Source: an uncultured cyanobacterium (GTDB lineage Bacteria > Cyanobacteriota > Vampirovibrionia > Gastranaerophilales > Gastranaerophilaceae). From it: a stretch of DNA of 25,094 nucleotides. The notes beneath the pieces are model-generated. The model was not told where the DNA came from. It ran no database searches and was given only the letters and a program-made list of their open reading frames with translations. Below are positions 1,535 through 3,899 of the stretch, piece after piece. Location of the stretch: positions 1 to 25,094 of the forward strand of contig CAMAML010000001.1 of NCBI GenBank assembly GCA_945836835.1, written 5' to 3'. A program made the translations under genes and the position numbers. How positions within the stretch are numbered: the first letter of the stretch is position 1; each line of letters opens with the position of its first letter.

Positions 1535-1550
1535 TCTTTGACGTTTCAAG

Positions 1551-1723
1551 GTTGTGCGTGCCACGAAATAAATTGGGCATGGCAGCCGAAAGTAAACCCC
1601 GTTTTCCGTTAAAAGTTTTGGGCGTAAAAGTTCCGAAATAGAAGGCGGGGGGGCGGGAAAAGAACAAGTGATAACGGTGGGGGCTTACGGTGTTAGCCGA
1701 CTCGTAAACCATAGATGCCCCAC
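1551..1723 (+). promoter_or_regulatory. Candidate S4 autoregulatory r-leader (16S rRNA mimic) upstream of rpsD
   Basis: 213-nt spacer with five 16S-like words in rRNA order. Helices TGCCA/TGGCA, CCCCGTTTT/AAGGCGGGG, GTGGGG/CCCCAC, TTACG/CGTAA. Confidence 0.65.
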
Positions 1724-1747
1724 AACAATGAAAAGGAGAAATTAAAA

Positions 1748-2350
1748 ATGGCTAGATATACAGGACCTTCAAACAAATTATTCAGAAATAAAAAGGTTAA
1801 GGATTTGTCAAACAGAAAATTGACATCATCCATGAGACAAAGTGCTTCGGGTCAACACGGTGCAGTCAGAAAGAAACTTTCCGAATATGCAATCCACTTG
1901 GCCGAAAAGCAAAAAATCAGATACACTTACCTCGTAAGTGAAAAACAATTTGAAAGATGCTACAATGAAGCAGCTCGCAGAAAAGGGGTTACGGGTACAA
2001 TCCTCCTCCAAATTATGGAATCGAGATTGGACAACGTTCTTTTCAGAGCAGGTTTCGGCATCACAAGAAAGCAATCGAGACAAATTGTTAATCACGGACA
2101 CGTTCTTGTTAACGGCAAGAAAGTTGATATTCCGTCATTTGCTGTTAAAGCGGGTGACGTAATCACTATTAAATCCAACAGCTCTCAATTCTTGAAATCC
2201 GTTATGGATATGATTGATATGGCTTGTGCTCCGGCTTGGATGACAATCGACAAAGAAGCTTTGAAAATCACTTTCGACAGAATTCCTGAAAGAGAAGAAT
2301 TGGATTCCGAAATTAAAGAACAACTCGTAATTGAATATTATTCTAAGTAG
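1748..2350 (+). CDS. rpsD: 30S ribosomal protein S4 (200 aa)
   Basis: MARYTGP...GQHG...KQKIRYTY...MESRLDNVLFRAGF...QIVNHGHVLVNGKKVDIPS...EQLVIEYYSK. Start set at ATG 1748 from SD AAGGAG and the family N-terminus. Confidence 0.99.
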   Translation: MARYTGPSNKLFRNKKVKDLSNRKLTSSMRQSASGQHGAVRKKLSEYAIHLAEKQKIRYTYLVSEKQFERCYNEAARRKGVTGTILLQIMESRLDNVLFRAGFGITRKQSRQIVNHGHVLVNGKKVDIPSFAVKAGDVITIKSNSSQFLKSVMDMIDMACAPAWMTIDKEALKITFDRIPEREELDSEIKEQLVIEYYSK

Positions 2351-2446: not shown

Positions 2447-3415
2447 ATGGAATTAAAAATTAAATGCGTTAATACTACAACAAGTTCAGACGGTTCTCAA
2501 TACGGAAAGTTCGTTATTGAACCTTTGGAAAAAGGGTTTGGTACGACAATCGGGAACTCTTTAAGACGCGTACTTTTGTCAAGTCTTGAAGGAACAGCCG
2601 TTACATCCGCAAGAATAGAAGGTATTACTCACGAATACACCGCTATTCCGGGCGTATTGGAAGACGTTATCGACGTAATGTTGAACTTGAAGGGGTTGGT
2701 TGTAAAGACCGATTCCAATGAACCTCAACATTTGCGTATAGACGTTGACAAACCGGGTGCTGTACTTGCCGGTGATATTCAATTACCTGCGGGCGTAAAA
2801 GTTGTAAACCCTGACTGGTTGATTTGTACGGTATCGGAAGGCGGAAGTTTCCACGCAGACATTATCGTAGAAACCGGTAAAGGTTACGAACCTCATGACG
2901 TGCCTCGTGATGCAAGAGGCGTTTCTATTGACGTTTTGCCTATCGACGCAACATTTATGCCTATCAAGAGAGTCAGCTACAACGTAGAAAACACTCGTGT
3001 AGGTGATTCTATCGACTTTGACAAATTGACTTTGGAAATTTGGTCAAACGGATCAATCGAAGTTACAACCGCATTGAGCCAAGCATCCAATCTGTTAATC
3101 GACCACTTCATGCAAATAGCCGCAATCACGGGGCAGCCTGTTGTTGCACCGGTTGCACCGGTTGAAGAAGTTGTTGAGGAAACGGAAACCGTTCCGACTA
3201 TGACAATCGAAGAATTGGAGTTGTCGGTCAGAGCCTACAACTGCTTGAAAAGAGCGAGCATCAACTCAATGGCGGAATTGTTGAAGAAATCGGAACACGA
3301 TTTGTTGAACATTAAGAATTTCGGTAAAAAATCTTCCGACGAAGTAATCGAAAGACTTCACCATTTCGGATTGGACTTAGCTCCAAACCCTGAAATCGAA
3401 GAAGAAATCGGTTAA
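2447..3415 (+). CDS. rpoA: RNA polymerase alpha subunit
   Basis: IEPLEKGFGTTIGNSLRRVLLSS...GVLEDV...DATFMPIKRVSYNVENTRVG; alpha-CTD IEELELSVRAYNCLKRA...IKNFGKKS. Confidence 0.99.
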   Translation: MELKIKCVNTTTSSDGSQYGKFVIEPLEKGFGTTIGNSLRRVLLSSLEGTAVTSARIEGITHEYTAIPGVLEDVIDVMLNLKGLVVKTDSNEPQHLRIDVDKPGAVLAGDIQLPAGVKVVNPDWLICTVSEGGSFHADIIVETGKGYEPHDVPRDARGVSIDVLPIDATFMPIKRVSYNVENTRVGDSIDFDKLTLEIWSNGSIEVTTALSQASNLLIDHFMQIAAITGQPVVAPVAPVEEVVEETETVPTMTIEELELSVRAYNCLKRASINSMAELLKKSEHDLLNIKNFGKKSSDEVIERLHHFGLDLAPNPEIEEEIG

Positions 3416-3470: not shown

Positions 3471-3899
3471 ATGAGACACATGACAAAAAAACATACGCTA
3501 AGCAAGGCAAAGGATCAAAGAGATGCCCTGTTGCGTGCATTGGCTACTGAACTTTTTGTACATGGTGAAATCAAAACGACAATGGCAAGAGCAAAAGCTT
3601 TGAAACCATATGCCGAAGCGATTATCACACTTGCTAAAAGAGGCGATTTGCACGCAATTCGTCAAGCGGCAAGACACATTTACAACAAAGAAACGGGCAA
3701 ATTCATCGACCTTAAGACGGGCGAAGTATTTGACGAAGCAGTTGCCGATAAAAAGTTAGCACCGCAAACGGTTTTGAGAAAGTTGTTTGTGGTAATCGGA
3801 AAGAACTACACCGACAGAAAAGGCGGATACACAAGAATTTTCAGACTTCCGCCACGTCGCGGTGATGCTTCCGAAATGGCTTTAATCCAGTTGGTATAA
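3471..3899 (+). CDS. rplQ: 50S ribosomal protein L17 with an internal insertion
   Basis: MRH...IKTTMARAKALK...IITLAK...VLRKLF...YTDRKGGYTRI...RRGDASEMALIQLV. Confidence 0.98.
   Translation: MRHMTKKHTLSKAKDQRDALLRALATELFVHGEIKTTMARAKALKPYAEAIITLAKRGDLHAIRQAARHIYNKETGKFIDLKTGEVFDEAVADKKLAPQTVLRKLFVVIGKNYTDRKGGYTRIFRLPPRRGDASEMALIQLV

Follow-up and report, generated by a model that had tools for sequence, protein, structure and literature searches.

Leaders through which ribosomal protein S4 acts are known or predicted in six bacterial lineages, the Gammaproteobacteria, Firmicutes, Fusobacteriales, Clostridia, Bacteroidia and Flavobacteria (Eckert and Weinberg 2020, PMC7247131). The S4 operator of E. 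coli is a nested pseudoknot at rpsM that overlaps the rpsM start (Alpha_RBS, RF00140; PMC7247131) and is confined to Gammaproteobacteria. The Firmicutes rpsD leader (Grundy and Henkin 1991/1992; PMC3849166) and the Fusobacteriales S4 leader regulate rpsD itself, and their conserved GUAA is the precedent for rRNA mimicry in such elements. In the Bacteroidia and Flavobacteria, the S4 leader is a hairpin placed immediately ahead of rpsD and shows no mimicry of rRNA (PMC7247131). No S4 leader is listed for Cyanobacteria or Melainabacteria (PMC7247131; PMC3849166), and a full-text search of the literature returned no paper pairing Melainabacteria with r-leaders. Leaders of this kind are valuable as natural experiments, in which one protein has come to recognise unrelated RNAs.

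The window analysed here is a 25,094-nucleotide stretch of DNA from an uncultured member of the class Melainabacteria/Vampirovibrionia in the phylum Cyanobacteriota. From the open reading frames and NCBIfam matches, it carries the alpha-operon genes in the order infA (139-354), rpmJ (395-508), rpsM (uS13, 732-1097), rpsK (uS11, 1148-1534, + strand), rpsD (uS4, 1748-2350, + strand), rpoA (RpoA, 2447-3415) and rplQ (bL17, 3471-3899). The infA and rpmJ assignments come from the open reading frame list, rpsM, rpoA and rplQ match equivalog models, rpsK matches the equivalogs NF003698 and TIGR03632, and rpsD matches NF003717 and TIGR01017. Between rpsK and rpsD is a spacer of 213 nt, in which the initial annotation had placed an internal S4 r-leader at the stretch holding five short words of 16S rRNA. 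A conserved leader does precede rpsD, but it lies at 1677-1723 rather than in the word stretch (1551-1630), and S4 as its ligand is our inference. For comparison we sampled 116 genomes of the family (Candidatus Gastranaerophilales) within 151 genomes of the order, and 100 further genomes from the rest of the phylum. There are 119 distinct orthologous rpsK-rpsD spacers, with lengths of 56-308 nt, and the set of 17 congeners has spacers of 88-222 nt.

The second hairpin that had been pointed out just upstream of the Shine-Dalgarno sequence (SD) turned out to be real, conserved and covarying, and the RNA at 1677-1723 on the + strand is a conserved folded RNA. It is about 47 nt long and has two helices, P1 (1677-1682 with 1718-1723) and P2 (1685-1689 with 1703-1707), which RNAalifold recovered from a plain MAFFT alignment of 18 species with compensatory changes at 7/13 pairs. 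Across 86 distinct sequences, double changes occur at 10/13 pairs and the paired fraction of cells is 93.6%, a level that 0/500 shuffles reach, while controls slid along the alignment are 31-55% paired. One P2 pair is G-U in 20 sequences, where the opposite strand would have C-A, which indicates that the + strand is the functional one. In the predicted fold, P1 would close a strongly asymmetric internal loop with GC (1683-1684) on one side and the one-sided 10-nt bulge ACCAUAGAUG (1708-1717) on the other, and P2 would be capped by a loop containing AGCC or AGUCC. In the window this loop spans 1690-1702, with AGCC at 1695-1698; across relatives it is 8-12 nt long, and the AGUCC form is found in one genus. 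The bulge reads ACCAUAGAUG in 64/86 sequences, with single changes in most of the others. The 3' strand of P2 is variable (GCAA, GUAA, GUGA and others), GUAA is not conserved in the hairpin, and the GUAA at 1592-1595 is species-specific.

Downstream of the hairpin, a linker and the rpsD translation initiation region occupy 1724-1747 on the + strand, with GGAG at 1735-1738. The distance from the end of P1 to GGAG is 8-11 nt in 84/86 distinct sequences, and the SD is not visibly sequestered by the hairpin. In most sequences the loop could form an AAGCC-GGCUU pairing, as a pseudoknot or an alternative hairpin, with a 5' partner that never varies. CCAU in the bulge could pair with AUGG at the start codon, a helix of 4 bp only and one constrained by coding. 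We rejected an upstream open reading frame or N-terminal extension starting at the invariant AUG of the bulge: among 100 spacers carrying this AUG the frame is not conserved, as 22 have it in frame with rpsD, 42 have it out of frame, and in 33 it opens a short reading frame. In sequence the hairpin does not resemble the family 16S significantly, since about 200/500 shuffles score as high.

A covariance model of the hairpin (R1), built from the 18-species MAFFT/RNAalifold alignment, matches window positions 1671-1750 at 79 bits. Matches were found in 98/151 genomes of the order and 94/116 of the family, spread over 17/44 genera, with one strong copy per genome that always ends at the rpsD AUG; the loci whose S4 proteins are closest all match as well (80/80). 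Three matches outside the family are marginal (E 0.002-0.008), and R1 found nothing in the 100 genomes sampled elsewhere in the phylum. The weak secondary matches of R1 were discarded as plain GC hairpins followed by an SD before rpoC, lacking the bulge motif. At the rpoB-rpoC junction of four relatives (L076, L077, L078, L079), a GC-rich hairpin of the form GCGGGGG-loop-CCCCCGC precedes AAAAGGAG and the rpoC start.

The hairpin with its SD is the only constant part of the orthologous spacers, and in all 16/16 congeners a stretch at about 1658-1747 is the sole conserved part of the spacer. Family genera that lack the hairpin, and the other families of the order, have unstructured spacers of 23-100 nt, often with a TTG start; one genus without the hairpin has an unrelated 170-nt spacer. 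The origin of the hairpin is sharply bounded within one family, and close relatives lack it. In G122, a repeat-like insert of about 115 nt lies between hairpin and SD, indicating that their proximity is not absolutely required.

The expectation that the leader belongs to a family not yet modelled holds for the hairpin at 1677-1723, which has no match in Rfam 15. At the gathering threshold no Rfam 15 family matches anywhere in the window, and a search of 1450-1850 at E up to 10 gave only two unrelated chance matches. The S4 leader families left unmatched include Alpha_RBS (RF00140), S4-Bacteroidia, S4-Clostridia, S4-Flavobacteria and S4-Fusobacteriales. The closest described systems are the Bacteroidia and Flavobacteria leaders, which likewise are hairpins placed directly before rpsD in an rpsM-rpsK-rpsD-rpoA-rplQ cluster, are restricted to their lineages, show no evident rRNA mimicry and have S4 assigned as ligand from position. 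The hairpin described here differs from them in its phylum and in having motifs of its own, the ACCAUAGAUG bulge and the AGCC loop, and the covariance models of those leaders do not match it even at E up to 10. With the E. coli operator it shares the operon and presumed translational feedback by S4, but it is a nested two-helix hairpin before rpsD and not a pseudoknot over the rpsM start. Like the Firmicutes and Fusobacteriales leaders it would regulate rpsD itself, although rpsD here is not monocistronic and their GUAA is not conserved.

A structure supported by covariation and a constant place ahead of an r-protein gene, on the strand of the mRNA, are two of the criteria for an r-leader, and both are found here. 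The hairpin is a well-supported new r-leader candidate, confined to part of one family of gut Melainabacteria. The covarying stems, the near-invariant unpaired nucleotides, the fixed distance to the SD and the single copy at rpsD together point to specific recognition by a protein that controls initiation. S4 is a primary binder of rRNA, and it regulates this operon or its own gene in other phyla, which makes it the obvious candidate for that protein. On balance we think it likely that the hairpin is a new S4 autoregulatory leader, and that it probably lets S4 limit its own synthesis in this one family; the ligand and the mode of repression are both parts of this reading that we infer. When free S4 exceeds free 16S rRNA, S4 would bind the invariant bulge and loop of the hairpin, held at its fixed 8-11 nt before the rpsD SD, and the bound hairpin, at the 5' edge of the 30S footprint, would then block or trap rpsD initiation. 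Only position ties the hairpin to S4; it has no significant likeness to 16S and none to any Rfam S4 leader, which counts against this reading. Three further observations count against an S4 sensor: the SD is unsequestered, an insert separates hairpin and SD in G122, and the operon has other conserved gene-proximal elements, before rpsM and before rpoA, such that gene-proximal leaders may be a general feature of the family. The hairpin is small and covaries strongly, and its near-invariant 10-nt bulge is an obvious target for mutation. Because its origin is so closely bounded, and close relatives do without it, the hairpin offers a suitable system for studying how an operator arises.

The spacer between rpmJ and rpsM (509-731, 223 nt) has the same two-layer layout as that between rpsK and rpsD. 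Its conserved part, at 637-710 on the + strand, is supported by covariation, has its own covariance model (R2) and consists of an H-type pseudoknot followed by a hairpin. The pseudoknot is formed by S1 (638-640 with 650-652) and S2 (643-648 with 661-666), with compensatory changes at 3/3 S1 pairs and 4/6 S2 pairs and 98% of cells paired; the hairpin (668-673 with 685-690) has the invariant loop AAGUAUUUAWS and is followed by an invariant run of seven A residues and AUCUAACAAC. R2 matches 88/116 genomes of the family, and the 12 genera concerned are precisely those with strong R1 matches; the genera g3 (where R1 is weak and diverged) and g4 have the rpsD hairpin without the pseudoknot. Against Rfam, the rpsM leader gave only sub-threshold matches to GP20-a and GP20-b, and RF00140 matches neither it nor the rpsD hairpin, although in position the rpsM pseudoknot is the closer analogue of the E. 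coli operator. The rpsM pseudoknot is a second undescribed leader that co-occurs with the rpsD hairpin. All other sampled Cyanobacteriota, together with the sister genera, have short, unstructured spacers. Tentatively, and as something we rate as a possibility worth stating more than as an expectation, the rpsD hairpin and the co-inherited rpsM pseudoknot could form a two-operator feedback circuit of the alpha operon that arose within one gut Melainabacteria family. If so, the origin of new r-protein operators could be dated on a phylogeny, and two unrelated folds would be recognised by S4, or by S4 and another protein of the operon.

We also noted that the initiation regions of rpsD (1724-1747) and rpsM (706-731) both read ACAAC-AAG-AAAGGAG-AAAUUAAA, a likeness with p < 0.001 against shuffles, and that the rest of the genome has few matches to this motif (4). 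The likeness may reflect duplication or a common constraint. The spacer between rpsD and rpoA (2351-2446; 19-360 nt within the genus, L002-L018) also has a variable 5' part and a conserved end, in which a small GGAUU...AAUCC hairpin is followed by AUAGUUAUUUUUAAAACUAGGAG, where UAGUU can pair with the SD-adjacent AACUA.

The strongest rival to feedback by S4, though one we consider unlikely, is that the rpsD hairpin serves mRNA processing, mRNA stability or translation initiation without being a feedback sensor. For instance, cleavage in the variable spacer could leave it as a protective 5' stem-loop, or a general factor could use it as a site, and in either case it would uncouple rpsD-rpoA-rplQ from rpsM-rpsK. 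The unsequestered SD would fit such a role, as would the structured state of the upstream variable region in most species (mean z = -2.4), the same succession of variable hairpin and conserved proximal element in the rpsM and rpoA spacers, and the simple GC hairpin with SD before rpoC. A stabiliser, however, would not need a near-invariant 10-nt bulge and a loop motif held over 14 genera together with covarying stems, and the fixed distance of 8-11 nt to the SD suggests control of initiation.

It is also conceivable, but in our view improbable, that S4 acts at the rpsM pseudoknot and that the rpsD hairpin binds S11, S13, L17 or another protein. The pseudoknot is well supported, heads the operon, is shared with the hairpin by the same 12 genera, and is the type of structure that S4 uses at rpsM in E. 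coli. However, a leader usually binds the protein encoded directly downstream of it, which for the hairpin is S4, and g3 and g4 carry the hairpin with no pseudoknot ahead of rpsM. To our knowledge, no leader bound by S11 or S13 has been described, which also argues against this arrangement. We regard it as very improbable that the hairpin acts as a small riboswitch or is targeted by a trans-acting RNA: its fold is compact and its unpaired nucleotides are invariant, as is typical of ligand pockets, but it has a single locus per genome, always before rpsD, matches no Rfam riboswitch, and no metabolite is logically tied to S4 alone.

The five words that first drew attention to the spacer all lie in its variable 5' part. 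They are present as described, namely GTGCCA (1558-1563), GCAGCCG (1582-1588), GTAA (1592-1595), CGTTAA (1607-1612) and TGGGCGTAAA (1619-1628), and had been taken to mimic 16S rRNA extensively from helix 18 to the 570 region; their E. coli 16S positions, in the 515-574 region, we take to be correctly assigned. The window's own assembly, which is 85% complete, has no 16S, nor do the assemblies of three congeners, and we used that of a complete genome from the same family (L070), which reads GTGCCAGCAGCCGCGGTAA...GCGTTGTCCGG...TTGGGCGTAAAG. In this 16S the words GTGCCA, GCAGCCG, GTAA and TGGGCGTAAA occur in the same order, but CGTTAA is absent, and CGTTGT stands at the site of the E. coli CGTTAA. 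The gaps between words, which had been called comparable apart from one 18-nt insert, are 18, 3, 11 and 6 nt in the spacer and 0, 2, 15 and 10 nt in the 16S.

In any spacer of about 140 nt, chance alone should yield ordered words of 4-10 nt in common with rRNA. Against dinucleotide shuffles of the 141-nt variable spacer, a gapped alignment to the family 16S joining all the words scores 126 (shuffle mean 139, sd 11; 912/1000 shuffles as high), and a chain of colinear exact words scores 59 (shuffle mean 61; 207/300 shuffles as high); chains limited to words of at least 5 or at least 6 bases likewise score at the shuffle mean. The sole piece that stands out against the family 16S is TTGGGCGTAAA-AGTTC, with p of about 0.01 to 0.09 depending on the scoring. 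When the test of likeness was applied to 89 orthologous variable spacers, 4.5% reached p<0.05, which is what chance would give, and this spacer ranks third. Nor are the words conserved in orthologous spacers: GTGCCA together with TGGGCGTAAA is found in one of the 119 distinct spacers, namely this one, GCAGCCG is found in 3/119, and the five words are absent from the spacer of the nearest relative (L007). As judged from these sequence comparisons, the words are a chance feature of the 5' spacer. That 1551-1630 is an S4-binding leader whose five words mimic 16S helix 18, the 530 loop and the 570 region can be set aside as having next to no likelihood. In its favour are the word order, the TTGGGCGTAAA-AGTTC match and the GUAA mimic that S4 leaders of Firmicutes and Fusobacteriales are reported to have (PMC7247131). 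These are outweighed by the lack of the words in the 118 other distinct spacers and the nearest relative, by chain and alignment scores at or below those of shuffles with a p-value ordinary among 89 spacers, by the missing CGTTAA in the 16S of the lineage, and by a fold that places GUGCC on one arm of a hairpin and GGCAG on the other, unlike the arrangement in helix 18.

The variable 5' part itself (1535-1675, + strand) makes up two-thirds of the spacer and is species-specific and structured (minimum free energy z = -3.2). Its predicted fold has a hairpin A at 1550-1587 (+ strand), with GUGCC and GGCAG(CC) on its two arms (-18.8 kcal/mol, z = -2.85; 1/200 shuffles folds equally well) and no run of U after it, and a hairpin B at 1598-1657 (+ strand) with UGGGCGUAAA near its tip (-23.5 kcal/mol, z = -1.73). 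The 5' parts of the spacers in 17 congeners are mutually unrelated, even between the window and L007, whose S4 proteins are 98% identical, and in a DNA search of 40 relatives similarity was confined to the last ~90 nt of the spacer. As a class, the 5' parts of 89 related species are nevertheless structured, 57% of them having z below -2. A stable hairpin right after the rpsK stop seems to be maintained or repeatedly replaced in these spacers despite their unrelated sequences.

Several origins and functions for this part were considered and rejected. A dispersed repeat of MITE or REP type was dismissed because 1535-1675 has no second copy in the window's own 85%-complete assembly; two exact-pattern scans of metagenome contigs found none either. 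A decayed rDNA fragment would show extended similarity, which is lacking, and paralogy with the rpsM leader was not upheld, as the GGGCGTAAAA common to both is not significant. The spacer contains no predicted promoter or terminator, and an intrinsic terminator or attenuator was rejected because the + strand has no terminator-like site and is A-rich after each hairpin.

We read the 5' part of the spacer as a zone of fast turnover of hairpins and insertions. In some congeners, the 5' parts hold inserts with inverted-repeat ends that are partially copied elsewhere in their own genomes. These inserts are about 110-135 nt long, their ends are inverted (GGATTTTG...CAAAATCC or AATAATCC) and they contain GCGAAG-like repeats; they recur in different alpha-operon spacers of different species (L009:1333-1467, L015, and L075 from G122), including the rpmJ-rpsM and rpsD-rpoA spacers of several congeners. 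The insert in the L009 spacer resembles a MITE, given that partial copies of it are found elsewhere in the L009 genome.
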